From Candidatus Bathycorpusculum hydrogenotrophicum (GTDB lineage: Archaea; Thermoproteota; Bathyarchaeia; Bathyarchaeales; Bathycorpusculaceae), in the NCBI GenBank assembly GCA_009783705.1, contig WRCX01000004.1, positions 1,827 through 65,826 of the forward strand: a DNA stretch of 64,000 bases. The letters run 5' to 3'. A program made the position numbers and the translations under genes. Shown piece after piece: positions 553 to 63,086 of the stretch (the stretch's first letter is position 1; the number at the start of each line of letters is the position of its first letter). A model generated the notes under the pieces. It saw only the letters and a list, made by a program, of their open reading frames with translations, ran no database searches and had not been told where the DNA came from.

Positions 553-2480
553 TGCAGCTACCCGCAGAAGTCCAAGAATACTTTCCCTACGGCAAGGCCC
601 GTCCCCACCAAGACGAATTTATAACAACTGTTAACAAAGCCCTAAATGACCGTAAAAGCGTACTCATCGAGGGTAGCAATGGTTTGGGCAAAACAATCTC
701 TGCTCTCTCTGCAGTGCTCCCCATTGCAGTCAAAAAAGACCTCAAGGTTCTCTATGTCGCAAGAACCCACCGCCAGCATGACCGAGTCATCGAAGAACTC
801 CGAGCTATATACAAACAACATCCCATAACAGGCGTATCTATCCGTGGACGCAACGAAATGTGTCTTAACGTATTTGCCTCCAAGGGTGCATCTGACTCAC
901 GCTCACTTATGGAAGTCTGCGAGATGCTCAAATCCAAAGGCAGATGTCCCTACCACACAAACGTACAAAACCGCTCTTGGGAGTACCTTCAAATGCAGCA
1001 AGAAATCTCCAGACGCCCCTATATGGGCTCTGAAATTCTGCGTTCCTGCAAAAAAAAGGAACTCTGTGCCTACGACCTAGTTAAGGGCGCAATATCTGAG
1101 GCACGGGTTATCGCACTAAGCTATCTCTATGTCTTTGACCCAATAATCCGAACAGCTTTTCTAAAAAACCTAGAAACTGAGCTCTCAAGGATAATTCTAG
1201 TTGTAGATGAAGCTCACAATCTGCCCGAAACCGCCATAGACATCTCTGGTAGCCAGCTGACCTCATTTGTCATGAAAGCCGCCGAAACAGAAGCCGAAAG
1301 ATACGACTACCGCGACATAGAACAATTCATCCACTACTTCAGAAACGAAATAGAAACCCTAACCGATAAAGTTCACAAAGAAGAAATCATTCCCGCAAGC
1401 CGCATAAAAAGCATAATCGAAAAAGGCGGCATTCAAAATCCACGTTCTTTCTTTGAACACATCCACGAAACCGGGTTGGTAATAAGAAAAAGCATGCTTG
1501 CTGAAGGCAGAAACCCTCGTTCCTACATTAACTCTATGGGCGAATACCTGCAGAAATGGATCGAAACAGCAGATGATGACTCCTACATAAATGTGGCCAG
1601 CCGCTACTTTACCAAAGAAGGCAACAAAACCGGTAAACTCGAAATCGCTGCCCTTGATCCCTCCAAGATAACTGCACCCGTTTTCAGCTCCACTTATGCT
1701 AATGTAATCATGTCAGGTACCCTCCAACCCCTAGAAGCCTACGCCCGCATCACCCATCTCTCACAAGACACCGTGCAATTCTTAGCTCCCTCACCATTTC
1801 CAAAGGAGCACATTTTCTCCGCTGTTTGTAGCGGAGTTACCACCTCAATGGAGAATCGCACACCAAAAATGTACCAGACCATGATTGAACGCATAAACGA
1901 GGTCGTTAACAGCACCCCAACTAACACAGGGATTTTTGCCGCCAGCTTCCAAGTACTCAATGCCTTACTCTCTGAGGGTCTTGAGGAACAGTTACTAAAA
2001 CCACTGTATTGTGAAAAAAGCGGCATGACATCTAAAGCCAACGAAAAATTAGTGCAAGATTTCAAAGTATGCGGCGACCGGGGCGGAGCAGTCTTTTTAG
2101 GCGTGCAAGGTGGTCGTACCTCAGAGGGCGTAGATTTCCCCGGCAACCAAATGAACTCAGTATTGGTTGTAGGTGTACCCTATGCTGAGCCAACCCCACG
2201 CGTAAAAGCACAAATCGACTACTACGAACGATGCTTCCCAGGCCGAGGCCGAGAATACGGCTACACATTACCCGCGATGAAAAAATCCACCCAAGCCGCA
2301 GGCCGACCCATTCGCACCCTAGATGACAAAGGCGCCATAATCTTTCTCGACTACCGCTTTGGATCAGCATACTGCAAAAGCTTCATACCCAGCTGGATAA
2401 CAAACGGCATGAAAACCCTGCCCGATAAACCCGGCATATTGGGTGATGAAGTCAGAGCTTTCTTTTCCTCTCAATCCTGA
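552..2480 (+). CDS. xpd: XPD/Rad3/DinG-family Fe-S SF2 helicase
   Basis: Walker A GSNGLGKT, Fe-S Cys residues (MCLN, EVCEM, RCPY, LCAY), DEAH, MSGTL, SEGVDF, QAAGRPIR. Confidence 0.92.
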   Translation: MQLPAEVQEYFPYGKARPHQDEFITTVNKALNDRKSVLIEGSNGLGKTISALSAVLPIAVKKDLKVLYVARTHRQHDRVIEELRAIYKQHPITGVSIRGRNEMCLNVFASKGASDSRSLMEVCEMLKSKGRCPYHTNVQNRSWEYLQMQQEISRRPYMGSEILRSCKKKELCAYDLVKGAISEARVIALSYLYVFDPIIRTAFLKNLETELSRIILVVDEAHNLPETAIDISGSQLTSFVMKAAETEAERYDYRDIEQFIHYFRNEIETLTDKVHKEEIIPASRIKSIIEKGGIQNPRSFFEHIHETGLVIRKSMLAEGRNPRSYINSMGEYLQKWIETADDDSYINVASRYFTKEGNKTGKLEIAALDPSKITAPVFSSTYANVIMSGTLQPLEAYARITHLSQDTVQFLAPSPFPKEHIFSAVCSGVTTSMENRTPKMYQTMIERINEVVNSTPTNTGIFAASFQVLNALLSEGLEEQLLKPLYCEKSGMTSKANEKLVQDFKVCGDRGGAVFLGVQGGRTSEGVDFPGNQMNSVLVVGVPYAEPTPRVKAQIDYYERCFPGRGREYGYTLPAMKKSTQAAGRPIRTLDDKGAIIFLDYRFGSAYCKSFIPSWITNGMKTLPDKPGILGDEVRAFFSSQS

Positions 2481-3559
2481 ATCTCTTGAAGCTTACGGTT
2501 TAACAAGACCTTGCCGATGATGAGTCGATGAGGTGTTGTGGTAACTGCCGTTTGAACCTTCAAAGTCCGTCTCTCAACATTAATTGCACGCAAAACTCCA
2601 ATACCTAAAAACCTGTTTCCCCAGCCATATAACCCTATAAGTACCCCTTTCTCAGGATCCTGCTTTTTAGGTACAGCATTTCGAGGCTCAACTGTAACTT
2701 GACTAAGTGGATAACATTGCAATTTTGATTTACGCAGATACTTAGCATAGGTCATTTCACGAAGAATCCGCCGTTTCTCTGATGTTCTTTGACTCAACGC
2801 AGGTGAAGGTGTCGCTGTTAATACACCCCCGCCTCCCAGATAAGACATCAACGTCGTAAGCTCATCTTTTATCTGAACCCCAACAACAATATTGGGCTTT
2901 AATTCTTTAATCAAACTCAGCTTATAACGTATAGCATCAATACCTGATACAAAGCCATCTGTGTTGATTATTATAACATCTGCTTGGCGCTGGTTGGCTT
3001 CTCCCATAATGGCCGCTAAGCCCTCAAGCGTTTTGGCAACTGCTGTTGGAGGCGAAGTGACGCCTATAAAGTATCCGTTTTGATACCGTAAATCATAGAG
3101 TTCAACGACAGGTTTAGTGACTATTGCATAGCCAACAGTTGCGCAGGGACCAATATCAGACTGACCCAAATCTCCATCAAGAATTGCGACTCTACGTTTG
3201 GCTTCAACCATCTTGTTTAACATATAGGTGCATAAACTGCTCTTTCCCGAATCCGATGCACCTAAAACTAAAATTACAATAGGCTTTTTCTCAAGTCCCA
3301 ACACGATTTGGATGGGTTTATTCCACGATTCTGGAACCGTATTGCCCTCCATCTCCTGCACCGTTGCGTTTGCACCCAACACAACATCAAAAACCGAGGG
3401 TTCAGATGCAAAAAATGGCATACGTTTACCTTCCCTAACAACAGTCCGCTGTAGTTCATTAAAGGGGCACCCGAACACTTCTGCTTTTCCCGAAATCAGC
3501 TCAACTGATGCTGGACCATCCACTATGAGCGTATTATTGGGTTGTATGGCTTGCCGCAA
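2471..3559 (-). CDS. Clp1/Grc3-family polynucleotide 5'-kinase
   Basis: GASDSGKS P-loop, DGDLGQSDIGP, INTDG motif. Confidence 0.85.
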   Translation of the reverse strand: MRQAIQPNNTLIVDGPASVELISGKAEVFGCPFNELQRTVVREGKRMPFFASEPSVFDVVLGANATVQEMEGNTVPESWNKPIQIVLGLEKKPIVILVLGASDSGKSSLCTYMLNKMVEAKRRVAILDGDLGQSDIGPCATVGYAIVTKPVVELYDLRYQNGYFIGVTSPPTAVAKTLEGLAAIMGEANQRQADVIIINTDGFVSGIDAIRYKLSLIKELKPNIVVGVQIKDELTTLMSYLGGGGVLTATPSPALSQRTSEKRRILREMTYAKYLRKSKLQCYPLSQVTVEPRNAVPKKQDPEKGVLIGLYGWGNRFLGIGVLRAINVERRTLKVQTAVTTTPHRLIIGKVLLNRKLQEIQD

Positions 3560-4190
3560 TCATTGGTCTCCTGTGCACTGAATTACCTAATCGCCCAGCT
3601 ATATGTATAGCTGAAGAAATATGCCTTACTTTTCGGCTATGGCGGCGATCTTTTAGAGGTTGATTGGTTCTGGTCTCATCTACCACCATAAGCACAATCT
3701 GCATCGGCAAAACATAATCAAGCTCTTTGAGCAGATCCCTATAAACTGCTACACCATTACCAATTTTTATAATAACCTTGGTCAAGGTATAGTCAACACT
3801 TTTTAGAATTTTTTGTATGCTTAAAACCAATTGCTGATTACTATAGCAGGTTTCCTGTTCTATGATTTTCCCATCAGCGATAACTGCTAAGCCAATGGCC
3901 TCACCGGGATCAATACCTATAACAATTCTTTTGTAAGCTTCTTTGCCAAGCATTAACCGTTTGGTTGCATTGAGTAAACTATCCAATTCATCCTCGCTGC
4001 AAAAAACCAAAACCTGCTCAAAGTTCACTAGATGCCGTTCCTGAGGCGTAGTTATGACCAGCTCTACCTTAGGCGGCACTGGCGTGCCTGGAACCAGACT
4101 CAAAAATGAAATATCATGTTTTTTGAGCATGTTAACTATGTGGAAGTAGGCTATGCCTCGCACTGTTGCAACAGCAACTTTTTCGTTCAT
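3534..4190 (-). CDS. Conserved protein with YqgF/RuvC-like RNase H-fold domain
   Basis: IVIGIDPGEAIGLAV, KIGNG and VDET motifs. Confidence 0.6.
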   Translation of the reverse strand: MNEKVAVATVRGIAYFHIVNMLKKHDISFLSLVPGTPVPPKVELVITTPQERHLVNFEQVLVFCSEDELDSLLNATKRLMLGKEAYKRIVIGIDPGEAIGLAVIADGKIIEQETCYSNQQLVLSIQKILKSVDYTLTKVIIKIGNGVAVYRDLLKELDYVLPMQIVLMVVDETRTNQPLKDRRHSRKVRHISSAIHIAGRLGNSVHRRPMIAASHTTQ

Positions 4191-35458: not shown

Positions 35459-36745
35459 ATGTGGCCCTCTGATATCTTCAGTTTTAGCCCCTCCACATTC
35501 TATACACTAATCTCCATTGTTGCTGTGTTAATCGCAATTTTGGTCACGCTCTCTGCTATTTGGATAAAGCAGAAAAAGCAAAAGCCGCTGTTACTTGCGC
35601 TTCAAATTGTCGGGGCCCTCTTTACGGCAATTTTCCTATTTGCCTATATAGGCGGCATGTTTATGACGCCCTCTACAACTGTTTTACACTCTGAACTTCC
35701 CGTTCGCATAGCCTTGTTTGTTTCTGGTGCCGCGTTTCTGACTTTAATTCTGACAAACGCCATTATGGCTCTGCGGGAAAAAACCCTCAAAAGCTCCTTG
35801 GCGTTAAAAATTGGTTTACTTGTAGTTGCAGTTGCATACTTTCTCTTTACTCTTCATGCTCTCTTTACTTTGGAGTGGATAGGTGAATGGAATCGTTTTG
35901 CTAGCGGGTCTATCTCTACAATAATACTTGTTCAAGATGTCAGTGCTTTTGTGGGCGTAATCGCCCGATTCATAGCTGGTATAATTGCCATAGCAGGTGT
36001 TGGGCTCTATTTTCGCAGTGGGTTTCCTTCAACCCAAAGATTCTATAAGATTCTGCGGGGGATCTTGGTGCTTGAGGCGTCCTATTGGTTTGCCCTTATA
36101 CCCACTGCTGTTACCTTGGGCTACATTGCTGGAGTTTTCTACGGATCATCTACCATAGGCTTATTGGGTGCTCTTGCTTGGACCACTATCCCCTTATTTG
36201 TGGAATCTATGGTGTTGCCCTCTGCTTTGATTGTTTTAGCTAAAAAATTGGATTACAAAAAGCCCGCTGTTGACGCTATTAGATGGGCGTGGATTTCTGG
36301 TGTGTTGTTGATAGTGGTTTTCTGGTTAACCAACATGGGAACTTGGATGCTTACCGTTGGAACTAATGGGCTTAGCTATCTTGTTGCTTATCCCCAGAAT
36401 ATGTTTAGCTTCATTATAACGGTGGTTGGTCTTATTGGATTAGTTCTCTTTACGGTTTATTTCGCTAAGAAACGTGGTCTTACCTCAAGTTGGCAGACTC
36501 TTAATCTGCGGGGCGTGGGTGTTATTATCACCTTGTTAGGCCTTTTTTTCCTTTGGAACTATCTTGGTTGGATATTTTTTGGTGGTGACTATGTTTGGAG
36601 TAACTGGTATGCTTGGTTTCTTGGGCATAACTTGGATTTATGGATGTTGACCTTGCCCCTATTTGGTGTACCTTTGATGTTTTATTGTCCAAACAGAGAC
36701 ACTGTGGGGTCTAGGGGCGGTGCATCAGCTGTTAAATCTGGTTAG
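35459..36745 (+). CDS. Polytopic membrane protein, unknown function (possibly 5'-truncated by an upstream in-frame stop)
   Basis: ~11-12 hydrophobic segments; an in-frame upstream signal-peptide ORF at 35270-35419. Confidence 0.7.
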   Translation: MWPSDIFSFSPSTFYTLISIVAVLIAILVTLSAIWIKQKKQKPLLLALQIVGALFTAIFLFAYIGGMFMTPSTTVLHSELPVRIALFVSGAAFLTLILTNAIMALREKTLKSSLALKIGLLVVAVAYFLFTLHALFTLEWIGEWNRFASGSISTIILVQDVSAFVGVIARFIAGIIAIAGVGLYFRSGFPSTQRFYKILRGILVLEASYWFALIPTAVTLGYIAGVFYGSSTIGLLGALAWTTIPLFVESMVLPSALIVLAKKLDYKKPAVDAIRWAWISGVLLIVVFWLTNMGTWMLTVGTNGLSYLVAYPQNMFSFIITVVGLIGLVLFTVYFAKKRGLTSSWQTLNLRGVGVIITLLGLFFLWNYLGWIFFGGDYVWSNWYAWFLGHNLDLWMLTLPLFGVPLMFYCPNRDTVGSRGGASAVKSG

Positions 36746-36793
36746 GTTTGAAACTCTTATATACACCAGTTGATAATTTCTCTTTTGAGTGTC

Positions 36794-37102
36794 ATGGCCG
36801 AAGTTTGTTCAACATGCGGATTACCTAAAGACCTGTGCGTTTGCGGCGAAATAGAGAAAGAGCAGCAACGTATACGTATACGTCTTGAAACCCGAAAGTT
36901 CGGTAAAGCAACCACGATTATTGATGGAATGGATGATAAAAATCAGAACCTTCAAAGTGTCGCCCAGAAGCTTAAAACTTATTGCGCCTGTGGCGGGACC
37001 CATAAAAATGGGCAAATCATGTTGCAAGGTGACCATCGTGATCGTGTCAAAGAGTTTCTGATAAAGATCGGATACCCTCAGGAAAACATCGAGTTACAGT
37101 AA
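36794..37102 (+). CDS. sui1: Translation initiation factor aIF1/SUI1
   Basis: CSTCGLPKDLCVC, RKFGK, LKTYCACGGT, LQGDHR. Confidence 0.95.
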   Translation: MAEVCSTCGLPKDLCVCGEIEKEQQRIRIRLETRKFGKATTIIDGMDDKNQNLQSVAQKLKTYCACGGTHKNGQIMLQGDHRDRVKEFLIKIGYPQENIELQ

Positions 37103-37136
37103 GTAACTCGCAAGCCGCTAATTTGGTGCATCTCGG

Positions 37137-37406
37137 ATGAAAAAGGCAGATAGCTTACGTGAGATCTTCAAAAACACAAAACGCAGAAAGCCAACCGCAA
37201 TTTTTTGCCCCCGATGTTGTAGTCCAAAAATTCAATTAGCCAGTAGTTTAGCTGTTTGGCTGACTCCTAAACAGTACTACTGCGAAAACTGCGGCTACAC
37301 AGGCATTATAGTTATGGAACTTGAAGAAGCTCCCGAGCTGGATAAAGCTGAAGAAGGTTCTGAGATATATCAAGAAGAAACTGAGATAGACCAAGAAAAA
37401 AAGTAG
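37137..37406 (+). CDS. Small Zn-ribbon protein with acidic tail
   Basis: FCPRCCS...YYCENCGY. Confidence 0.65.
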   Translation: MKKADSLREIFKNTKRRKPTAIFCPRCCSPKIQLASSLAVWLTPKQYYCENCGYTGIIVMELEEAPELDKAEEGSEIYQEETEIDQEKK

Positions 37407-37430
37407 AGTGCGCTTGATAGATAAGCGCTC

Positions 37431-38375
37431 TTAATCGGGTAATTCGAGGTTTAGCTGTTTTTTGAGTGTCTTGTAGCGGTTTCGCACGGTAACTTCGGTT
37501 ACTCCGGCGGCTTCTGCTATGTCTTTTTGGGTTTTCTTTTCGTTGTTTTGGAGACATGCGATGTAGAGGGCAGCAGCGGCTAGTCCCATGGGGTCTTTTC
37601 CTGCAGCAGCACGTTTACGTCTGGCTTCCCGAAGGATGTTGATTGCTGCACCTTGGGTTTTTCCTGATATGCCGGTTTTTTCAGCGATCTTGGATACATA
37701 GGTCAGAGGATCTGCGATGGGCATGTGAACTTCGAGTTCTCGGAGCAACAATCTGTAGCATCGAGCGACATCTTTTTTGTCAACTAGGCTGGCTTCAGCG
37801 ATTTCGCGCAATGTTCTTGGTGTTCCGCTTCCACGACATGCTGCATACAATGCGGCTGCGGCTATAGCAGCGATGGAGCGTCCTCGGACTAATCCTTTGT
37901 CGAGGGCTTTTCGGTAGACAACGGCGGCTTTTTCTTTGATCGGTGGTGGGATGTAGACTTTGTCTGAGAGGCGGTCTAGTTCGGCCATGGCTTGTGCGAG
38001 GTTGCGGTCGATGGATGAGTGAACTCGGCTTCGGATCTGCCATTTTCTAAGACGCCACATTTGGAGTCTTGTTGATAGGGGCAGTTTTCTGCCAAACGCA
38101 TCGCGGTCCACTTGGCTGATGGCTGTGGATAAGCCTTTGTCGTGGACGGAGTAAGAGGTGGGTACACCGACGCGGCTTCTGGACGCTTTTTCTTCTTGGG
38201 TGAATGCGCGCCATTCTGGTCCTTTGTCCATCATTTGTTCGTAGAGGACAAGGCCGCAGTCGCCGCAGACGGTTTCTCCTGTGTCGTAATCGTGAACCAG
38301 GTTTGCGCCGCCACACTCGGGGCATTTTTCTGCCTGTCGTTGGGTTGTTTTCGGTGCTTCTTTTTTTATGCTCAC
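37431..38375 (-). CDS. tfb: Transcription initiation factor IIB
   Basis: CPECG...CGDCG, GPEWRAF, two cyclin repeats, AGVTEVTVRNRY. Confidence 0.97.
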   Translation of the reverse strand: MSIKKEAPKTTQRQAEKCPECGGANLVHDYDTGETVCGDCGLVLYEQMMDKGPEWRAFTQEEKASRSRVGVPTSYSVHDKGLSTAISQVDRDAFGRKLPLSTRLQMWRLRKWQIRSRVHSSIDRNLAQAMAELDRLSDKVYIPPPIKEKAAVVYRKALDKGLVRGRSIAAIAAAALYAACRGSGTPRTLREIAEASLVDKKDVARCYRLLLRELEVHMPIADPLTYVSKIAEKTGISGKTQGAAINILREARRKRAAAGKDPMGLAAAALYIACLQNNEKKTQKDIAEAAGVTEVTVRNRYKTLKKQLNLELPD

Positions 38376-55146: not shown

Positions 55147-55611
55147 TTGCTTACGCTTAAAAACATAATCAGTTGTCAATAGTAGCTTGCCTTTGGAGTA
55201 GTTGTTTTCTTTGATTTCAAACTGGTTCCTATTTACCCATTTGGCGGTAATTTGTTCTTCTTGTTCTTGATCCTCAAAAGTACCCCGCCAATACAACTCC
55301 AAAGTGGCATCATCAATCCATTGCCCCCTGTGATCATGAATCTGCCCATCCGAACTTGATCTCAGCAAATGTATTGTATCATCTGCTGAGTCAACTGTCC
55401 AGAAGTCATTTTGGTAAAAGTCTTCATAGCCTTCAATGTGACCATTGATTTCACAGTTTATCCCCATATGTTCTTCTTTTGCACTCATTTCACCACAGCC
55501 AGCCACCACTTTAACCTCACTGGTTTTCATGGCAATACCCATAGCCCACTCGTCAACGAGTTGTCTGAGCCATTCTTCTGCTTTGGTTAGTTCCAAATTT
55601 TTCTGAGACAC
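55135..55611 (-). CDS. Hypothetical beta-barrel protein (DUF1579-like)
   Basis: WLRQLVDEW start and beta-rich pattern ending in FKRK; weak family recall. Confidence 0.5.
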   Translation of the reverse strand: MSQKNLELTKAEEWLRQLVDEWAMGIAMKTSEVKVVAGCGEMSAKEEHMGINCEINGHIEGYEDFYQNDFWTVDSADDTIHLLRSSSDGQIHDHRGQWIDDATLELYWRGTFEDQEQEEQITAKWVNRNQFEIKENNYSKGKLLLTTDYVFKRKQLGE

Positions 55612-55794
55612 ACCCTTGACCTCACAATAGTTTTAAAAAGCGAACTGATAAGCCAATGTGGCTGTATTGCTACAGCAACGGAATTATCAACAACCCTAAC
55701 ACACAAAAACTCTGGCACAAAGTTGAGATGAGCAGAATATGGCTCTGACTTTAAACGTTAATTAGCTACCGACGTTATCTGCCTTGTGATACGT

Positions 55795-56274
55795 ATGACT
55801 GGCCTGGCAATTATAATCATGGGTTCTGAGCGGGACCTCGAATTTTCACGCGAAATCGCCAAATACCTCAAACTCTTAGGAGTAAGCTACGAATTCCGCG
55901 TTGCATCCGCACATAAAACCCCTCTAACGGTGCTAGAAATTCTCAAAGAATTTGAAAACCAACAAGTTGTCTACCTCACCGTTGCAGGCCGCTCCAATGC
56001 CCTTAGTGCCTTTATTGATGGCAACACTGCCCACCCCGTCATAGCTGTTCCACCCTACAGCGAAAAATACGGCGGCACAGACATCTACTCTTCACTTCGA
56101 GTACCAAGCGGTATCGGCTTAGTTGTCACCATCGAACCCGAAGGCGCCGCCATTGCAACCGCAAAAATTCTAGCACTAAACGACCCCACCCTGCTTGCTA
56201 ATGTCCAAACCTACCAAAACAATAAAAAACAAGAACTTGAGCGGGCTAATGAAACCGTCAAGAACCTAAAGTAA
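55795..56274 (+). CDS. purE: AIR carboxylase PurE, class II type
   Basis: IMGSERD, SAHKTP, AGRSNAL, DIYSSLRVPSG. Confidence 0.9.
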   Translation: MTGLAIIIMGSERDLEFSREIAKYLKLLGVSYEFRVASAHKTPLTVLEILKEFENQQVVYLTVAGRSNALSAFIDGNTAHPVIAVPPYSEKYGGTDIYSSLRVPSGIGLVVTIEPEGAAIATAKILALNDPTLLANVQTYQNNKKQELERANETVKNLK

Positions 56275-56279
56275 TATTC

Positions 56280-56741
56280 TTACTTTAGCTCATTTTTTAT
56301 TGTCTTTAGCGCAAAAACTATGTCCTTGAGCGGGTTCATGCCTGCCTTTTTGTTATATTCACATCTAGAGCAGTGCACACTTATCTTTGCTTCATGTTCA
56401 CATACATCACATTTACATGCTGTATTGCTTCGTAGCGTGTTAGAGTCAAGCATAACATTGAACAGCAAAAACCCCACAATTGTCCCAAGCACCACAGCAA
56501 ACCCTGCATTAGCGGCTGTGAGTAAAAGCGCGGCTGTCAAAAGCCCTGCCATAGAGCCAAAACTCACAAAAGTTCGGGTTTTTATGCCATACTTTTTATC
56601 AATTCGGCTCCACAATATGTTTTCTTCTACAAAGTTGCCTCTTTTGGCAAAAGCAACATAATTCACAAGCGTTAAAACTATGGCGGCACCTAAACCTACA
56701 CCATAGTAGAGCAACACTAGACCTGTTATATTTGAAATCAT
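56280..56741 (-). CDS. Membrane protein with C-terminal Cys cluster
   Basis: Three TM segments plus CKCDVC...HCSRC. Confidence 0.55.
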   Translation of the reverse strand: MISNITGLVLLYYGVGLGAAIVLTLVNYVAFAKRGNFVEENILWSRIDKKYGIKTRTFVSFGSMAGLLTAALLLTAANAGFAVVLGTIVGFLLFNVMLDSNTLRSNTACKCDVCEHEAKISVHCSRCEYNKKAGMNPLKDIVFALKTIKNELK

Positions 56742-57049
56742 CCCTCTCTCTCCCTTTCTTTCTAAATACTCTCAAACGCTTTAATGGACACAATAAAATT
56801 CTGTCTGCGCGCCTAAGATAATTGTCATATTACTTGTAATTACGTGATAAAAATGTTGTGACAAGCGCATGTATGATATATTTTTGACCTAAACACAATA
56901 CCTTCGTTTTATATCTGACCATCTGGCAATCAGGTAGCTTGTGTTTCTCAGGGTTTTCCCTTTGATAAAAGTGCCAAACGATGACTTGCCATAACAAAAC
57001 CTATGACCAACCAATAATATATTTATGTGTGCATCACCTAGACTCATCT

Positions 57050-57125
57050 GCTGGGGTGGCCGAATGGCTTAGGCGGTAGCCTGCAGAGCTGCTCTATATG
57101 GGTTCAATTCCCATCCCCAGCTCCA
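57050..57125 (+). tRNA. tRNA-Cys(GCA), CCA encoded
   Basis: Acceptor GCTGGGG/CCCCAGC, U73 discriminator, anticodon arm GTAGC-CTGCAGA-GCTGC, T arm ATGGG-TTCAATT-CCCAT. Confidence 0.95.
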
Positions 57126-57203
57126 AATTAATCCTTTTACGAATCTTCCTCTTGTCCTGAGTGCTCGGTCTTTCTGTAGGTGCTATTAAGAAGGCGAGTG
57201 GTT

Positions 57204-57617
57204 TTAATTGGTTTTTTCAAAGTTAGTGAGTATTTGTTTAACTGTAACTATTTTGATACCTCTAAAACTATTTAATGCCAGTAGATGTTTGTCTCCGGAA
57301 ACAATAATGTCTACTTTTCCATCATAGGCCGTCTCAATAATCATGTCATCTTTAGGATCTTCTTTAACAAGCTTAAATTTTGAAACTACGTCCACTATTT
57401 CAGCTGTTTGCATCAAAGCTAAGATAATTCGATGGCGTTCCTCTTCAGTAGTTTTGAATTTTGGTCTTTGCAAAACAAGGTCAAACTCTTTTAGAATCGT
57501 CTCGGAGATAACTAAAGTGAATTCTTTACAGAGGCCTTTCTTTAAGAGTTCTCTTGATTTGCCGTCAGATATTATGGCGCTAACTAAAACGTTGGTGTCA
57601 AACACCACTCGAAACAT
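57204..57617 (-). CDS. PIN-domain (VapC-like, PIN_3) toxin
   Basis: VVFDTNVLVSA, EDPKDD, IVSGDKHLL. Confidence 0.92.
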   Translation of the reverse strand: MFRVVFDTNVLVSAIISDGKSRELLKKGLCKEFTLVISETILKEFDLVLQRPKFKTTEEERHRIILALMQTAEIVDVVSKFKLVKEDPKDDMIIETAYDGKVDIIVSGDKHLLALNSFRGIKIVTVKQILTNFEKTN

Positions 57618-57627
57618 CGTTTATCGT

Positions 57628-57897
57628 CTACTTTCTGGTTTCTTTGATTTCTTTTTGTATTTCTGCATTGGATAGTTTTAGTTCTTTTTTGTCCATTAGT
57701 TTGAATATGTCTTCCCATTCTTTTTTTAGGTCTGGGAGTTGTAGTTTTTTCATTATAATGGTGTCGCCTTTTCCGTAGACTAGCAATTTGGTTTTTGGTT
57801 TTATTTCTAGTTCTTCGCGGATGGATTTGGGAATGACTACTTGTCCTTTCTCGCTCATTATGGTGACTTCTAGTTCTTCAGTCATAGCAATCATCAT
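57628..57897 (-). CDS. AbrB/MazE/SpoVT-family antitoxin
   Basis: SEKGQVVIPKSIREEL. Confidence 0.9.
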   Translation of the reverse strand: MMIAMTEELEVTIMSEKGQVVIPKSIREELEIKPKTKLLVYGKGDTIIMKKLQLPDLKKEWEDIFKLMDKKELKLSNAEIQKEIKETRK

Positions 57898-58509
57898 TGT
57901 AAGAATATTTTACTTTCCTATTATTAATCTTTTTCAGGGCTAATGGCTTGATCTGTTGACAACTTTTGTGTTGATTATGGCTTTATGGAAAAGTTATGCG
58001 GCAAATTTGAGTTTGCCGTTTGTTCCACCCGACGGGTTCTGTTTATGCGTTCGTGAATTGATCTTCTATTCTTCGTGGTGTTCGCCTTGGGATCTATTGG
58101 GTATAGCTGTTTTTTCATAAACAACTGCTGATATATCGGTAATTGACGTTATTTAACTATACTTTACCGATATATGAAAACAGTTTTTGAGTTTGCGTGA
58201 GTTTTACTGCTGTGACATTTACGTTTGAGACGGCATTTATCTCATCAAATGAACTGGGTATTGGTAAGATAAATGATAAGATAAAGAAACGGCTCTTGAT
58301 GTGAACATAGTTGTGTTGCTGACACTGATGACGCTAATTACACTGTTTCTCTGTTATAAGAAAAGAGGCAAGATGATGAAATTTATGGCTAAATAAACTG
58401 TTTTGTGTTATGTGTGGTTAGTTATTGTTTTGTGTATTGAAGAGTGCTGGTTTTACGTAACGCTGGCCTTGGTGTTTTGTTGAGTTTTGAATTAATAAAC
58501 TGGTGCTGG

Positions 58510-58584
58510 ATGTTGTTTAGGGGAAAAAGGGGTTGAGTGGATGATTTCTCTGTGGTCTGTTGATGCATTTCCCATCCCCTGCTC
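58510..58584 (+). repeat. att-like junction 1: 62-bp arm + degenerate tRNA-Cys 3' end
   Basis: ATGTTGTTTAGGGGAAAAAGGGGTTGAGTGGATGATTTCTCTGTGGTCTGTTGATGCATTTC followed by CCATCCCCTGCTC. Confidence 0.9.
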
Positions 58585-58790
58585 TTTATTGTTGTACCTG
58601 CATCTCTTCCTTATGTCCAGTTTGGGTGTAAATTAACCGTTTTGGAATTAAATCGACAAGTGATATTTAACTCATAAATCATAGTTTTTATGTCACTTTT
58701 CATTATCGTATGGTTGAGCGTAATTGTGTGGATTACTTTAAATAATTTTGTGTTATGTAGTATTATGTCTGTAGTTGGAAGGATGTTTCA

Positions 58791-59027
58791 ATGGTAAAAA
58801 ACATCATAGAATTAGGTGAAGAGGAAAACAGAGTAATTAATATAGTTAAGGCAAAGTATGGGTTTAAGGATAAGAGCCAAGCTTTAAGCGTTATTATCAA
58901 ACGTTATGAAGAATCGGAGCTTGAGCCTCAGCTAAGACCTGAGTTTGTAGCAGAAATCGGAGAGACAATTAAGCGAGGCAAGTTTGTTAAGGTTAAAGAT
59001 TTCGAAGAAGAATATGGGCTAAAGTGA
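58791..59027 (+). CDS. DUF2683-like antitoxin
   Basis: NRVINIVKAKYGFKDKSQA...EPQLRPEF; upstream of a RelE-type toxin. Confidence 0.75.
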   Translation: MVKNIIELGEEENRVINIVKAKYGFKDKSQALSVIIKRYEESELEPQLRPEFVAEIGETIKRGKFVKVKDFEEEYGLK

Positions 59028-59034
59028 CTGTTGC

Positions 59035-59295
59035 TTGTATAGCCTTGAGATTGAAGAACAAGTTTCTAAAACCTTTCACAAACTTTTAAAAAAAGACAGA
59101 TCTCAATTAGAGGCTATAAACAAGAAGATACAGCAGATTTTATCTGATCCGTATCAATTTAAACCATTAAAACACCCCTTAGACGGTTTTCGCAGAACAC
59201 ACATTGGTTCTTTTGTTCTCATATATCGTGTAACCGAAAATCCACCAACGGTTCAAATAGTGCAGTACACACATCACGATAAAGCCTATCTCTAA
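59035..59295 (+). CDS. RelE/ParE-family toxin
   Basis: KKIQQILSDP...FKPL...RRTHIGSFVLIY...HHDKAY. Confidence 0.88.
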   Translation: MYSLEIEEQVSKTFHKLLKKDRSQLEAINKKIQQILSDPYQFKPLKHPLDGFRRTHIGSFVLIYRVTENPPTVQIVQYTHHDKAYL

Positions 59296-59444
59296 ACGCT
59301 TCAGAAGAGAATCGCAATTTTTCTATGTTGTTTGAAGATTTTGGTTGTTAGAAAGCTCGTGAATACAATGGTGCTAACTGGGGCAAATCGGTGGTATGTG
59401 CTATTATTATTGGCTAGATGTCGGTAATTGGTAAGGGTGCGTTT

Positions 59445-59518
59445 ATGTTGTTTAGGGGAAAAAGGGGTTGAGTGGATGATTTCTCTGTGGTCTGTTGATG
59501 CATTTCTCATCCCGGCTC
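59445..59518 (+). repeat. att-like junction 2
   Basis: Identical 62-bp arm (59445-59506), then TCATCCCGGCTC. Confidence 0.9.
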
Positions 59519-59633
59519 TTTATTGTTGTACCTGCATCTCTTCTTCATGTCCGGTCTTATTGGGAGTTTCTAAAACCTTCGTAAGGGCACAAACTATTTT
59601 AGGTTTTAAGTAGCACTACTTTTGGGTTTAACA

Positions 59634-59881
59634 TTGACTGAGAGTATAACTTTTTCGGCAGTGTTGTGGAAGGAAGGCCGATTGCAGATTGCGTGGTCTC
59701 CAGAACTGGATATATAGCTAGCCAAGGCAAAAATGTTGAGGATGCTTTGGGAAATCTGCGGGAGGCAATTGAGCTCTATCTTGAAGATGAAGATGCAAAA
59801 ATTCCAACTGACCGATCTGCCATTCTTACCACTTTGAGTGTTCAAACACATGCCCAAGCGGGAACCTCTGTCAGGCAGTAA
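59634..59881 (+). pseudogene. hicB: HicB antitoxin, frameshifted by a TA duplication at 59715-59716
   Basis: FSAVLWKEGRLQIAWSPELDI in one frame continues as ASQGKNVEDALGNLREAIELYLED in another. Confidence 0.85.
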
Positions 59882-60077
59882 AATAATCAAGGCACTTAGT
59901 AAGGCTGGGTTTCAAGTAGTGGGACAAAAAGGAAGCCATGTCCGATTAAAAAAGAAAACATTTTCGGGCATAAACATTGTAATTGTTCCGATCCACCCCG
60001 AAATCAAGAAAGGAACCTTAAGTCCATACTGCGGCAAGCTGGATTAACAGCAGAAGAAAACTCGAAAGGCTCTGTAA
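59850..60077 (+). pseudogene. hicA: HicA toxin, frameshifted near 60020
   Basis: LSKAGF...QKGSHVRLKK...VPIHPEIKKGTL; SILRQAGLT lies in a different frame. Confidence 0.85.
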
Positions 60078-60286
60078 TAGCTGAGATTTACTCGATAATT
60101 ATCTCTTGTTTTTCAGCAAAAATACGGTTCAATATTGGTTTTAGCTGAATAATTATGCCTATATTTTTAGAAATTTCGTGCGTATTTAGTTCTTGGCAAG
60201 CGCTTATCCAAAGGTTGTATGTGCATTTGATCAATGAACCTCGGGTGCATTTTTGCTGAGTTTTGAATTAAAAGTTGGTGTTTGTT

Positions 60287-60361
60287 ATGTTGTTTAGGGG
60301 AAAAAGGGGTTGAGTGGATGATTTCTCTGTGGTCTGTTGATGCATTTCTCATCCCCAGCTC
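60287..60361 (+). repeat. att-like junction 3
   Basis: Identical 62-bp arm (60287-60348), then TCATCCCCAGCTC; 12 nt are identical to the tRNA-Cys 3' end. Confidence 0.9.
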
Positions 60362-60427
60362 TTTGGTGTTGCGTGTAATGCGTTTCCTCCTGTTTCGGTT
60401 TTAAAAGGTTCCAAAACCATTAAGAAC

Positions 60428-61642
60428 ATGACAATAACAAAAACTAACCCTGTTATCCATGACTATGAGCGGGTTCTTGAGCGGAACCGCCAAAACATTA
60501 AGCCTTTACGCAATAGCGAGCTAAGTTTACAGTTTTTAGACCACTTAAGTGCCCTTGGGTTGTCAGTGGGCAGAGTAGCAAAATACGCCGCCCACCTACC
60601 TGTATTACTGCCTCTTATTGATGTAGATCTTAAAGCGTTAACGAAAACGGATGCTGAACACATAGTAGCGGCGATAAATAGCCGACCAAACAAAGCCTCC
60701 ACTAAAAGCGACAACAAACTTTTGCTACGAAAACTTGTTCAATACGCCAAAGAGGGCAGTTGCGCTAAAGGCACACCTTTGCCCTCTGAGGTAAGCTGGA
60801 TAAGTTTAGCAATAAAAGAAAAAAACCCCCGCGTAACCCCTGAAACCCTTTTGACCTCTGAGGATTTTGCGGCAATTATTCGAGCCACCCAAAATAAGCG
60901 TGATAGGGCTATGGTGTATGTGCTTTTTGAAGCGGCTTTGCGACCTGGTGAGCTTTTAACCATGACTGTAGGTAGTGTAGCGTTTAAGGATAATTATTGC
61001 CTTATCACTGCAAATGGTAAGACGGGTATTAAGCGGATTCCTTTGGTTGTTGCTTGCAAGCCCTTGCTTGAGTGGTTAGAGGATCATCCTTTTGGTGATG
61101 AGCCGTCTTCGTCTTTGTGGTGTTCACTTGCTCATAATTGTGTGGGTAAACAGTTGAGCTACATGCGTTTTCGCGATATAATTCAGCGTTTGGCTAAGCG
61201 GGCTGGTTTGAAGAGGACGGTTTGGCCGTATTTGTATCGTCATAGTTCTTTGACCGCTATGGCTAAAGTATTTACCGAGTGCCGTTTGGAGCAGTTTGCG
61301 GGTTGGAAATATGGCAGTAAGATGACAAGACGATATGTGCATTTTTCTGCTAGAGATTTAGAAGATGCAGTTTTGGAGTTGCACGGTATAAAGTCTGTTT
61401 CAAAAAACACTGGCTTGATGCAAGTCGTTGATTGCCCAAGGTGTAGCAATAAAAATCCTTTTGGAACTACAAGATGCACCACCTGTGGCATGATATTAGA
61501 CAAGGAAACCGCCTTAAGATTTGAAGAAACTCAAAGGCAAAAAGAGGGGATATTGCAGGAACAAAACATAGAGTTAAAACAACGCATAGAAAAGTTGGAG
61601 AGTTTTGTCTCCTCCCTTATTCCTACCTCTGGCAAGCTTTGA
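60428..61642 (+). CDS. Tyrosine integrase with C-terminal Zn ribbon and coiled coil
   Basis: ALRPGE (R), GKTG (K), YLYRHS, AGW, MTRRYVH (Y), CPRC...CTTCG. Confidence 0.92.
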   Translation: MTITKTNPVIHDYERVLERNRQNIKPLRNSELSLQFLDHLSALGLSVGRVAKYAAHLPVLLPLIDVDLKALTKTDAEHIVAAINSRPNKASTKSDNKLLLRKLVQYAKEGSCAKGTPLPSEVSWISLAIKEKNPRVTPETLLTSEDFAAIIRATQNKRDRAMVYVLFEAALRPGELLTMTVGSVAFKDNYCLITANGKTGIKRIPLVVACKPLLEWLEDHPFGDEPSSSLWCSLAHNCVGKQLSYMRFRDIIQRLAKRAGLKRTVWPYLYRHSSLTAMAKVFTECRLEQFAGWKYGSKMTRRYVHFSARDLEDAVLELHGIKSVSKNTGLMQVVDCPRCSNKNPFGTTRCTTCGMILDKETALRFEETQRQKEGILQEQNIELKQRIEKLESFVSSLIPTSGKL

Positions 61643-61770
61643 TTTGTTTTTCAACAAGTGCCTTTAATTCTCCAATTTCTTCTAATATTTTTTCTAAAAC
61701 CTGTTTGCTTATTGTTATTTGTTTGCTCATTGGTTATCGTAAATGGTGAAGGGCTGAATTTTTAAAACTA

Positions 61771-62376
61771 CGACATGGTTTAGGGCAATACGTGCTCCAA
61801 AAAGGCACGTTTTAATTAAAACCATGTCGCCTAAAAAAGACCACACACTATTAAGGTGTTAAGTTCGTTTAGTGCCATGCTTGGTTGAGAGTGTGTTTGT
61901 TGTGTCCTAGTTTGGGGCAAGATGGTTCCTTTTTGGGACTGTCTTGACCAAAACTAGGGATCAGCCCAATATTATAGAACACACAATATATCAATACCTA
62001 AACCTGTAAGTACAAACATCTTTTGTTGTTTTTTTGTAGTGACATAGTTAGGGCAATACGTGCTCCAAAGGGGCACGTTTTGGCTAAAGTATGTCACTAA
62101 AAAGGAAGGCTAAAGTTGTGTTAAGAAGATTAGCTTTAGCAATAGTGGGTTGGGGGTTTGTTTATGTGTAGAGCCATAGTTTGGGGAAAATGATTCCTTT
62201 TGGGGGCTGTCTTGATCAAACTAGGCTTGTCAAATATTATGGAACACATCCACGTGTTTGTTTCTAAAGGCTGTAAAAACACAAATGCTCTTACAGTAAT
62301 GTGGTTTTTGGGAGGTTGTGACCTGATTTGGGCAATACGTGTTCTTTTGGTGCACGTATTGGGCAAAACAGGTCGC
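61771..62376. repeat. ~270-bp-period array of imperfect palindromes (A-B-A-B-A)
   Basis: GGGCAATACGTG at 61783, 62051 and 62330; TAGTTTGGGG at 61908 and 62178. Confidence 0.8.
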
Positions 62377-62761
62377 GCCCTGTACACAGCCTGTAGTTTA
62401 CCAATAAAACATGAAAACTACCATACCCACCACAAACAGTTCTTTGTATTTTGAAATTGGATGGTTATGGTTTTAGGTTAAACAAGGTAGTCTGTGTGTT
62501 GTTTTGATCAAGGTATGGTTGCTATCTATGCTGTTGTTGTGTGTAGTTTTTTGTGTAGTGTGTTTTCTTTAAAGTTAGGTGTTGTTTTGGTGAGGGGTTG
62601 GTTGTGTGGGGGCGAAAAAAGGGCAGTGGGGGCGAGTATGGGCAGAGTTGGTTTGGGTGGTGGTTAGCCTTTAAATATTTGAAGCGTGCATAAACTCTTG
62701 TTCTGTTAAGAACATTCTTGCCTGTTTGGTAGCTTGTCGGCTTTAAGACGTTTCTCCATAG

Positions 62762-63086
62762 CGGGAAACCACGGGAAACAACAATTTTACACTCAGTGTA
62801 AACTCTACTTCTCACAAAACTCACTAAAAACTCCAAACGGGAAACCCTCAAAAACAACTTATTTCATCAAAAGATAGCGGGAAAAACCAACCAAACAACA
62901 AATAAACTGAAACATACGTCTTATTTGATTAAAACAGCCTAAAACAAACACTAAAAAAGCAAGAAAAATAGAGTGAGACGGGAAACAAAAAGGGGAAACC
63001 CGGGAAACAGGCGGGAAACACACAACACAGCACGGGAAACACAAGACAAACGAGAAACAATAAAAACGCAAAATAGATAGGGAAAA
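62762..63086 (+). repeat. Cluster of CGGGAAAC octamers (7 exact + 4 variants)
   Basis: Exact copies at 62762, 62772, 62838, 62979, 63001, 63012 and 63033. Confidence 0.8.

Follow-up and report, generated by a model that had tools for sequence, protein, structure and literature searches.

Organization of the tRNA-Cys locus

We analyzed a 64,000-nucleotide stretch of DNA (hereafter, the window) from Candidatus Bathycorpusculum hydrogenotrophicum, a member of the Bathyarchaeia from the termite gut. The window corresponds to C4:1827-65826, a part of contig C4 in a 2.24-Mb assembly of 107 contigs. Features past its end are given in extrapolated window coordinates (contig C4 position minus 1826), and all genomes used for comparison were metagenome-assembled genomes (MAGs) or metagenome contigs. 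Near the end of the window, a complete tRNA-Cys gene is followed by a row of small units (cassettes c1, c2 and c3), by a larger element that encodes a tyrosine integrase (E4) and, beyond the window, by a further cassette (c5). The cassettes carry toxin-antitoxin (TA) genes, begin with a short left arm (P') and end with a shared right arm (P1), which at junctions J1, J2 and J3 is joined to a copy of the tRNA 3' end, the attachment (att) core. Coordinates of all these features are shown in Table 1.

An earlier reading of this DNA, made from the sequence only, had described tRNA-Cys followed by three recombinase-less units with a common 62-bp arm and cores derived from the tRNA 3' end. ARAGORN, Rfam and repeat and pattern searches all agreed with this layout, and the core-to-core sizes of 1461, 935 and 842 bp were recovered by the repeat finder (measured from start to start, 1461 bp separate the tRNA 3' end at 57105-57123 from its copy at 58566, and successive arms are then 935 and 842 bp apart). 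A 61-nt P1 query was found with 0 mismatches at 58511, 59446 and 60288, with no match elsewhere in the window and none in 100 dinucleotide-preserving shuffles. Copies of the tRNA 3' end (CAATTCCCATCCCCAGCTC) with 17 of 19 positions identical are present at 58566 and 60343, and a copy with 1 nt deleted at 59501. The boundaries are direct repeats of arm and tRNA-Cys core in one orientation throughout and do not have the form of the XerC/XerD (pdif) sites of dif modules. A pseudo-tRNA reading of the arm was rejected, as ARAGORN called no tRNA or tmRNA at the junctions; in the Rfam scan the tRNA was the sole match, with none for the arm. The idea that P1 is a dispersed repeat could be ruled out by a genome-wide check: nowhere in the 2.24-Mb assembly does the arm occur outside the tRNA-Cys locus, where a fourth, truncated copy lies 5.2 kb beyond the end of the window.

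An assembly artefact, in which the repeated arm had been collapsed or MAG contigs had been mis-joined, is a very improbable origin of this arrangement. It might be suspected from the 107 contigs of this MAG and from the many related MAG contigs that stop directly after tRNA-Cys. However, the order tRNA-Cys/c1/c2/c3/E4/c5 is repeated in two independent assemblies (ENA ERZ27257295 k141_229604 and GCA_009778815.1) and was thus recovered in at least three, one of them an 80-kb contig, which also answers the earlier concern about collapsed junctions. Moreover, the flanks of the junctions are unique, the exact repeats (62-85 nt) are below the final k of 141, and the alternative arrangements described below are internally consistent across JGI, ENA and NCBI data.

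Table 1. Features of the tRNA-Cys locus in window coordinates (those past 64000 are extrapolated); gene functions are predicted
Feature	Position	Strand	Evidence or remark
tRNA-Cys(GCA), complete, CCA encoded	57050-57125	+	ARAGORN; Rfam tRNA, 56.2 bits
att core (final 19-21 nt of tRNA-Cys)	57105-57123/5	+	ARAGORN, repeat finder
Cassette c1, 1.44 kb	57126-58565		left arm P' 57126-~57165; P1 arm 58510-58571 at end
c1 PIN_3 toxin	57204-57617	-	Pfam
c1 MazE/AbrB antitoxin	57628-57897	-	Pfam
c1 non-coding right-arm region, ~600 bp			conserved blocks 57903-57958, 58309-58366, 58452-58509
Junction J1	arm 58510-58571, core 58566-58584	+	62-bp P1 arm and core CATTTCCCATCCCCTGCTC; repeat/pattern search
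Cassette c2, 935 bp core to core	58585-59500		P' TTTATTGTTGTACCTGCATCTCTTCC... at left; P1 arm 59445-59506
c2 DUF2683, antitoxin-like	58791-59027	+	Pfam
c2 ParE/RelE toxin	59035-59295	+	Pfam
Junction J2	59445-59518, arm to 59506	+	P1 arm and core with 1-nt deletion (CATTTCTCATCCC-GGCTC); repeat/pattern search
Cassette c3, 842 bp	59519-60342		P' at left; P1 arm 60287-60348
c3 HicB remnant	~59640-59881	+	frameshift near 59712
c3 HicA	59838-60047	+	Pfam; C-terminal frameshift near 60020
Junction J3, left attachment junction of E4	60287-60361, arm to 60348	+	P1 arm and core CATTTCTCATCCCCAGCTC; repeat/pattern search
E4, whole, 7,991 bp	60362-68352	+	bounded by two cores
E4 left arm P'	60362-60427
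E4 tyrosine integrase, 404 aa	60428-61642	+	Phage_integrase (Pfam)
E4 repeat/palindrome and CGGGAAAC-iteron region	61770-63060
E4 KilA-N gene	63124-64050	-	crosses window end
E4 NACHT+LRR gene, 1218 aa	64508-68164	-	C4 66334-69990
E4 right end, P2 arm (70 nt)	~68264-68339		core GCATCCCCAGCTC 68340-68352; P'-like sequence to 68370
Cassette c5, beyond the window	68353-69248		P' TTTACTGTTGC...; right-arm block 69070-69127
c5 HicA	68520-68741	-
c5 HicB (HicB_lk)	68742-68960	-
c5 P1 arm	69205-69248		stops at arm position 45, without core

Cassettes and their cargo

Neither the list of open reading frames (ORFs) nor Pfam revealed a recombinase in c1, c2, c3 or c5. Type II TA pairs of predicted toxicity could be recognized in c1 (PIN_3 with MazE/AbrB), c2 (ParE/RelE with DUF2683) and c5 (HicA with HicB_lk, both intact). 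The claim that each unit holds one TA pair and no recombinase stands for c1-c3 as far as Pfam and ORFs are concerned, but not if an intact pair is meant, since the HicBA pair of c3 is frameshifted. Nor are P1-type cassettes always TA pairs, because P1 is also carried by a 2.9-kb unit of unknown proteins (U) and by a GNAT unit. The genes of c1 and c5 are on the minus strand and those of c2 and c3 on the plus strand, with the integrase in the middle of the array. Exact-protein look-up found c5 HicA not on record and gave nothing new for KilA-N and the c3 ORF.

The right end of the array is decayed. The truncated arm of c5 has lost its core and is fused to a 56-nt copy of c1 57903-57958, which is probably the remainder of a sixth, c1-like unit. 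A search at the chromosomal boundary (~70540), where synteny with relatives restarts, revealed no recognizable attR core.

One conserved block of the right-arm region (GTTGTGTTGCTGACACTGATGACGCTAATTAyAyTGTTTCTCTGTTAkAAGAAAAGA; 58309-58366 and extrapolated 69070-69127) has been entered at the same spot by two other mobile elements in comparison contigs. The first (L128 and L129; L128 1790-3090) is an insertion sequence (IS)-like transposon with inverted ends of ~20 bp (GCCTTGGGACAAAAGTAG) and a 10-bp target duplication (CTGTTAGAAG), and the second (L046 and L121; L046 reverse complement 2265-2330) encodes an 878-aa protein that resembles primases, along with a 382-aa tyrosine recombinase that is unrelated.

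Element E4 and its integrase

E4 is organized as a tRNA-associated island: a core is present at 60343-60361, the integrase gene lies 67 nt from it, and a second core is found at 68340-68352. In the NCBIfam scan, the integrase gave Xer-type and generic tyrosine-recombinase matches, all far below the cut-off, and no match to the integron-integrase (IntI) model, and its nearest PDB matches were archaeal XerA and XerC-like. An integrase of the SSV type (self-partitioning) was also considered and rejected, as the att core is located outside the integrase gene, which is uninterrupted. Three paralogous integrases with 68-72% amino acid (aa) identity are encoded in this genome: one is found at tRNA-Leu, another at tRNA-Thr and the third on a small contig. 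The right arm of E4, named P2, differs from the P1 arm of the cassettes. Thus, the proposal that the cassettes and the adjacent integrase element share one attP arm did not hold here, although P1 adjoins E4-type genes in other species (see below).

Some additional features of E4 should be noted. Three nested palindromes of ~60 nt (61768, 62036 and 62315) and two further hairpin repeats are located 3' of the integrase gene, and iterons of the sequence CGGGAAAC, eight or more in number, come next (62760-63050); this part of E4 could be a replication or regulatory region, and no Rep gene was recognized in E4. The cargo protein with NACHT and LRR_5 domains is weakly similar to an antiphage NACHT family, and its gene contains 69-bp tandem repeats whose copy number varies among assemblies (1195, 1218 and 1264 aa). 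The P2 arm recurs at the ends of other islands beside tRNA-Leu-like cores, on contigs C11 (~35850-37700), C3 (189-284) and C80 (~3570-3617), and on C11 a single 338-aa ORF lies between two P2 copies 1.75 kb apart. From these copies, mini-units bounded by arm and core may exist at other tRNAs.

Anatomy of the attachment sites

The left arms of c2, c3, c5, E4, the integrase element of a related genome (G014) and other P1 cassettes could be aligned to the consensus TTTAYTGTTGCnTCTGCAnCTCTTCCTCATGT, to which a chromosomal flank used as control did not align. Together with the P1 arms, this alignment argues that each unit has both attP arms and that every internal junction (P1 arm-core-P') is attP-like. 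The 5' part of the core (TTTC[C/T]CATCCCC followed by N) mostly co-varied with the arm to its left (c2, c3, c5' and U), whereas the 3' end (GCTC, or GCTCCA for c1) followed the unit to its right, a pattern from which we infer that strand exchange would take place in the final core bases, at about NGCTC. Like the cis-mobilizable elements (CIMEs) of bacteria, the cassettes lack integration genes and have att sites related to those of an autonomous element: c1-c3 and c5 contain no recombinase ORF, their P' is akin to the arms of the E4 and G014 type, and P1 and core are located at the right end (c1-c3).

The array had also been supposed to work like an integron, and it has features that would suit a true integron or a cluster of attC sites lacking an integron-integrase (CALIN), with the arms as attC and the integrase as IntI: small cassettes adjoin a tyrosine recombinase, chromosomal integrons typically include TA cassettes, and integrons occur in Archaea (10.1101/2022.02.06.479319). 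However, when folded as DNA, both strands considered, P1 arm and core were no more stable than shuffled sequences (z of +1.44, +1.15 and -0.04), and no attC-like or RNA-like fold of the arm beyond that of shuffled sequence was seen. The integrase resembles Xer-type proteins below threshold and lacks an integron-integrase match, recombination involves a core formed by the 3' end of a tRNA, and the 8-kb element that the integrase inserts is the one encoding it. Furthermore, the cassettes are of mixed strands and do not form a co-oriented, promoterless series after attI/Pc. Given no arm fold and no integron-integrase signature, recombination appears to be of the classical type between double-stranded att sites and not attC chemistry. 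An integron-like mechanism was therefore not borne out, and a genuine integron or CALIN has next to no probability, the lowest among the explanations considered here.

Alternative arrangements in near-identical strains

Comparison contigs were retrieved by exact-protein look-up combined with an arm scan, and the cassettes found in this way were 97-100% identical. Contig L111 (GCA_031283255.1, the same as JGI Ga0466717_095854) reads c2/c3/c5/chromosome with flanks that are 99.7% identical, and exactly the 7,991 bp of E4 are absent between the cores, the joint being composed of the c3 arm, TTTCTCATCCCCAGCTC and the P' of c5. The two ends of E4 share 15 nt only (CATCCCCAGCTCTTT), an identity too short for homologous recombination, which argues that the presence or absence of E4 reflects a site-specific event. 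At the level of assembled sequence, the target of E4 in this genome is thereby shown to be an internal junction (c3/c5) and not the tRNA itself.

Other contigs contained further combinations. L046 and L121 read U/c1/c5, with c2 and c3 absent and with the arm and core of another unit preceding c1 in place of the tRNA. L122 reads GNAT-unit/c1, and L128 and L129, which come from independent data sets, read c5/c2 (c5 with full arm and core in L128). In L043, c2 is followed by the chromosome (SMC), and L044 and L047 read P1-arm/HicBA cassette. Overall, c1 was found at 99.3-100% identity behind different left neighbours in other assemblies, and the left neighbour of c2 was c1, c5 or c2 itself, whereas the link between c2 and c3 was kept in all three arrangement classes that contain c3. 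In L124, c1 is 98.6% identical and the neighbouring chromosomal flank 89%, so that c1 appears to move faster than the chromosome.

If cassettes were released as circles, a joint of arm, core and the cassette's own left end had been predicted, and such a joint was present in two assembled contigs. In L112 (970 bp), the right end of c2 is joined via arm and core to the left end of c2 itself. L128 (4157 bp), which reads c2/c3/c5::IS/c2, has an exact terminal overlap of 141 nt, the loop signature of an assembly with k=141. The c5'/c2 joint in L128 contains a strongly diverged c5' arm that shares exact matches of no more than 17 nt with other arms, a finding in favour of site-specific over homologous exchange at this position. 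Thus, the expectation that cassettes vary in number and order and are always bounded by arm and core was borne out in public assemblies at 97-100% identity. As judged from these contigs, internal junctions are shown to have served as integration targets, and the units to behave as discrete modules in varied order and number.

Distribution of the arm and the integrase in the genus

The records bearing the arm were Candidatus Bathycorpusculum MAGs from termite guts, with labels such as Emb289, Lab288 and Pmx449. Conservation of the P1 arm with its tRNA-Cys core (76-95%) extends to four further species of this genus and to six metagenome contigs from JGI. In other species P1 either adjoins an E4-type KilA-N gene (G018 and G026) or lies 5 kb from a decayed E4-type integrase (G014). 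Because of this position beside E4-type genes, P1 looks like the native right arm of the E4 family, and the E4 studied here seems to have exchanged its right end for another. Forms that would connect a full element with a TA-only unit did not turn up. The E4 integrase family was detected in 21 of 120 genomes of the genus, and strong P1 arms were restricted to genomes with this family (5 out of 5). In G015, G016 and G026, which represent three other species, integrase orthologues with 94-98% aa identity are located directly beside tRNA-Cys, and the E4 sequence there is 88-93% identical at the nucleotide level; this integrase clade is therefore tRNA-Cys-specific.

We also surveyed the tRNA-Cys loci of 80 members of the genus. 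Arrays of tRNA-Cys fragments were common, but many of the apparent units delimited by cores with 2-3 mismatches hold ordinary genes, and the survey was not used as support. In G048 (C3; L038, oriented 1441-3800), a distantly related genome within the genus, tRNA-Cys is followed by units of 1038, 488 and 745 bp with longer tRNA-Cys fragments and unrelated arms, and no integrase is nearby; judged by size and sequence motifs, the 1.0- and 0.75-kb units contain a PIN-like toxin and a small upstream gene only (VapBC-like). In at least nine related MAGs, contigs break off downstream of tRNA-Cys, at distances ranging from a few hundred bases up to 4.3 kb, which fits a repeat-rich or heterogeneous locus in the sampled populations. 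On the other side, the gene 5' of tRNA-Cys varies by lineage (window 55500-57050 compared with relatives). A PaaI-like thioesterase gene, which lies 15 kb downstream here (extrapolated 72709-73071), is inverted and adjoins tRNA-Cys in many genomes, and this position points to an inverted segment that is bounded on one side by the att region of tRNA-Cys.

Probable accretion and mobilization in trans

Taking these results together, we lean moderately towards reading the locus as a composite island built by site-specific accretion, in which the autonomous E4 is combined with non-autonomous, CIME-like TA mini-elements that were probably moved in trans by the E4 integrase. E4 would be the single autonomous member, recombining at the 3' end of tRNA-Cys and carrying the integrase, the iteron/palindrome region, KilA-N and NACHT-LRR. 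The non-autonomous mini-elements, of which there are at least four (c1, c2, c3 and c5; 0.84-1.46 kb), would each consist of a P' of ~40 bp, a right arm P1 of 60-250 bp, a tRNA-Cys core and one TA operon. By recombination between two junctions, the E4-type integrase would excise single cassettes or runs of them as circles and would re-insert these at the tRNA or at any junction, so that the cassettes would be mobilized in trans in the manner of CIMEs, and the TA pairs would persist by stabilizing themselves or the array. The chances appear even that the whole amounts to a cassette system analogous to an integron but mechanistically distinct from it, whose mini-elements excise as circles and re-insert in trans to give a strain-variable, shufflable array.

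Several observations weigh against mobilization in trans. It is an inference on our part that the E4 integrase recognizes P1 cassettes, as E4 itself carries P2 here, and no excisionase was identified. The joints in L112 and L128 are seen at the level of assemblies and could also be given by tandem duplications or graph artefacts. In addition, the core of J1 contains a T substitution, that of J2 a 1-nt deletion, and both genes of c3 are pseudogenes, each bearing a single frameshift, so part of the array may be fossil.

The cassettes could stem simply from internal deletion of full elements. The units would then be remnants of tandem full-length elements in which loss of the TA genes was counter-selected, and their variation would have arisen via homologous recombination, gene conversion and unequal crossing-over between arms of 62-250 bp, a less likely account but a serious rival. 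The mutated cores and the decayed c3 would suit it, as would the state of the array's right end, where the arm is truncated and both core and attR are missing. The three arms are 100% identical within the genome, yet the orthologous c2 arm in L043 differs, which suggests intragenomic homogenization or arm-internal crossovers, and the c1/c5 joint in L046 carries a c3-type core, which fits deletion by homologous recombination inside an identical arm. Such exchange between arms of 62-120 bp can explain part of the variation. In bacteria, elements as a rule first decay to CIMEs and then undergo accretion (PMC5704250), and integrase loss after integration has been reported for archaeal mobile genetic elements (PMC8371274). 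However, at least three independent deletions would be needed, each keeping the ~40-bp P' and the P arm and yet removing an integrase gene that lies 67 nt from the core. The order of c5 before c2 and the c2/c2 joint require duplication or re-insertion rather than deletion, divergence of the c5' arm would prevent it from recombining efficiently with other arms by homology, c1 is better conserved than its chromosomal flank, and the integrase element demonstrably uses internal junctions.

It is also conceivable, but improbable, that the cassettes are moved by another recombinase, either a host Xer-type enzyme or a paralogous integrase (as for the dif modules of Acinetobacter), and that the E4 integrase is coincidental. 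The P2 right arm of E4, the three paralogous integrases (68-72% aa identity), the existence of an array without E4 (L111) and the second, unrelated tyrosine recombinase element within the L046/L121 array could be explained in this way. Against it, the core of the cassettes is the tRNA-Cys 3' end, which is the target of the E4 integrase clade, whereas paralogues are located at tRNA-Leu and tRNA-Thr; the P' arms of the cassettes match the E4-type P'; and P1 is found beside E4-type genes in other species.

If the mini-elements are mobilized in trans, they would be the first non-autonomous integrative cassettes in Archaea, as far as our literature search reached, and would represent a second route to a shufflable cassette array, independent of attC and IntI. 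Type II TA modules would then spread as minimal selfish hitchhikers on an integrase not their own, and the frequent breaks of MAG contigs of this genus at tRNA-Cys would be accounted for. The substrates are well defined (19-nt core, ~40-bp P' and 62-bp P1 arm) and a single 404-aa integrase is involved, which makes heterologous testing feasible even though the organism is uncultured.

Comparison with known systems

The sequence-only reading had put the arrangement forward as one not known to be described in Archaea, and a topic search of the literature agreed in finding no such description. Archaeal tyrosine integrases are known to target tRNA genes, and cases are on record in which elements integrated in tandem or lost their integrase once integrated (PMC8371274); this review of archaeal tyrosine recombinases makes no mention of arrays whose minimal units carry TA genes only, have full attP-like ends and are permuted between strains.

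Serial integration at tRNA genes with partial tRNA copies between elements has been described for the tycheposons, tRNA-anchored islands of Prochlorococcus (10.1101/2020.12.28.424599), and for the tandem islands in Islander (PMC4383910). Such islands form excision circles and tandem joints that are detectable by polymerase chain reaction, grow by accretion and decay. The likeness to tycheposons is one of function only: each of them has its own recombinase and usually a replication module, and integrase-less units of ~1 kb with conserved arms do not belong to their description.

The dif modules of Acinetobacter plasmids (PMC13141974, PMC6449649) are also one- or two-gene modules, many of them TA, which have no recombinase of their own, are bounded by tyrosine-recombinase sites and are shuffled between replicons. 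They use 28-bp XerC/XerD sites in alternating orientation, reside on plasmids and need the host Xer proteins. In contrast, the units described here are chromosomal and are separated by direct repeats of the tRNA-Cys core with long asymmetric arms, and an integrase encoded by an element is the likely catalyst.

The likeness to integron arrays (10.1101/2022.02.06.479319) is functional. In both cases, small recombinase-less units of variable order and number are found beside a tyrosine recombinase, TA cargo is frequent and circular intermediates are suspected. However, no IntI-specific signature and no attC hairpin is seen here, the site consists of a double-stranded arm and a tRNA 3' core, the cassettes have promoters of their own and differ in orientation, and the integrase belongs to the 8-kb element that it moves.

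Among the concepts described so far, bacterial CIMEs with site-specific accretion come closest. CIMEs and their accretion with integrative and conjugative elements and integrative and mobilizable elements have been described in Streptococcus (Pavlovic 2004; Bellanger 2011; reviewed in PMC5704250). Like the cassettes, which contain no recombinase ORF, CIMEs have lost the genes for integration and transfer and have kept attL and attR. They also form tandem arrays together with an element that bears an integrase, located 3' in a tRNA gene or in another gene, and their internal chimeric att sites serve further integration and joint or separate excision, to which the present array can be likened. 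On the other hand, the host is an archaeon and no conjugation module is present here, and the units are far smaller (0.84-1.46 kb), occur at least four in a row and contain little beyond one TA operon. Finally, the cassettes at this tRNA-Cys, which may or may not stem from decay of an autonomous element as CIMEs do, share one conserved family of arms and are permuted among near-identical strains.

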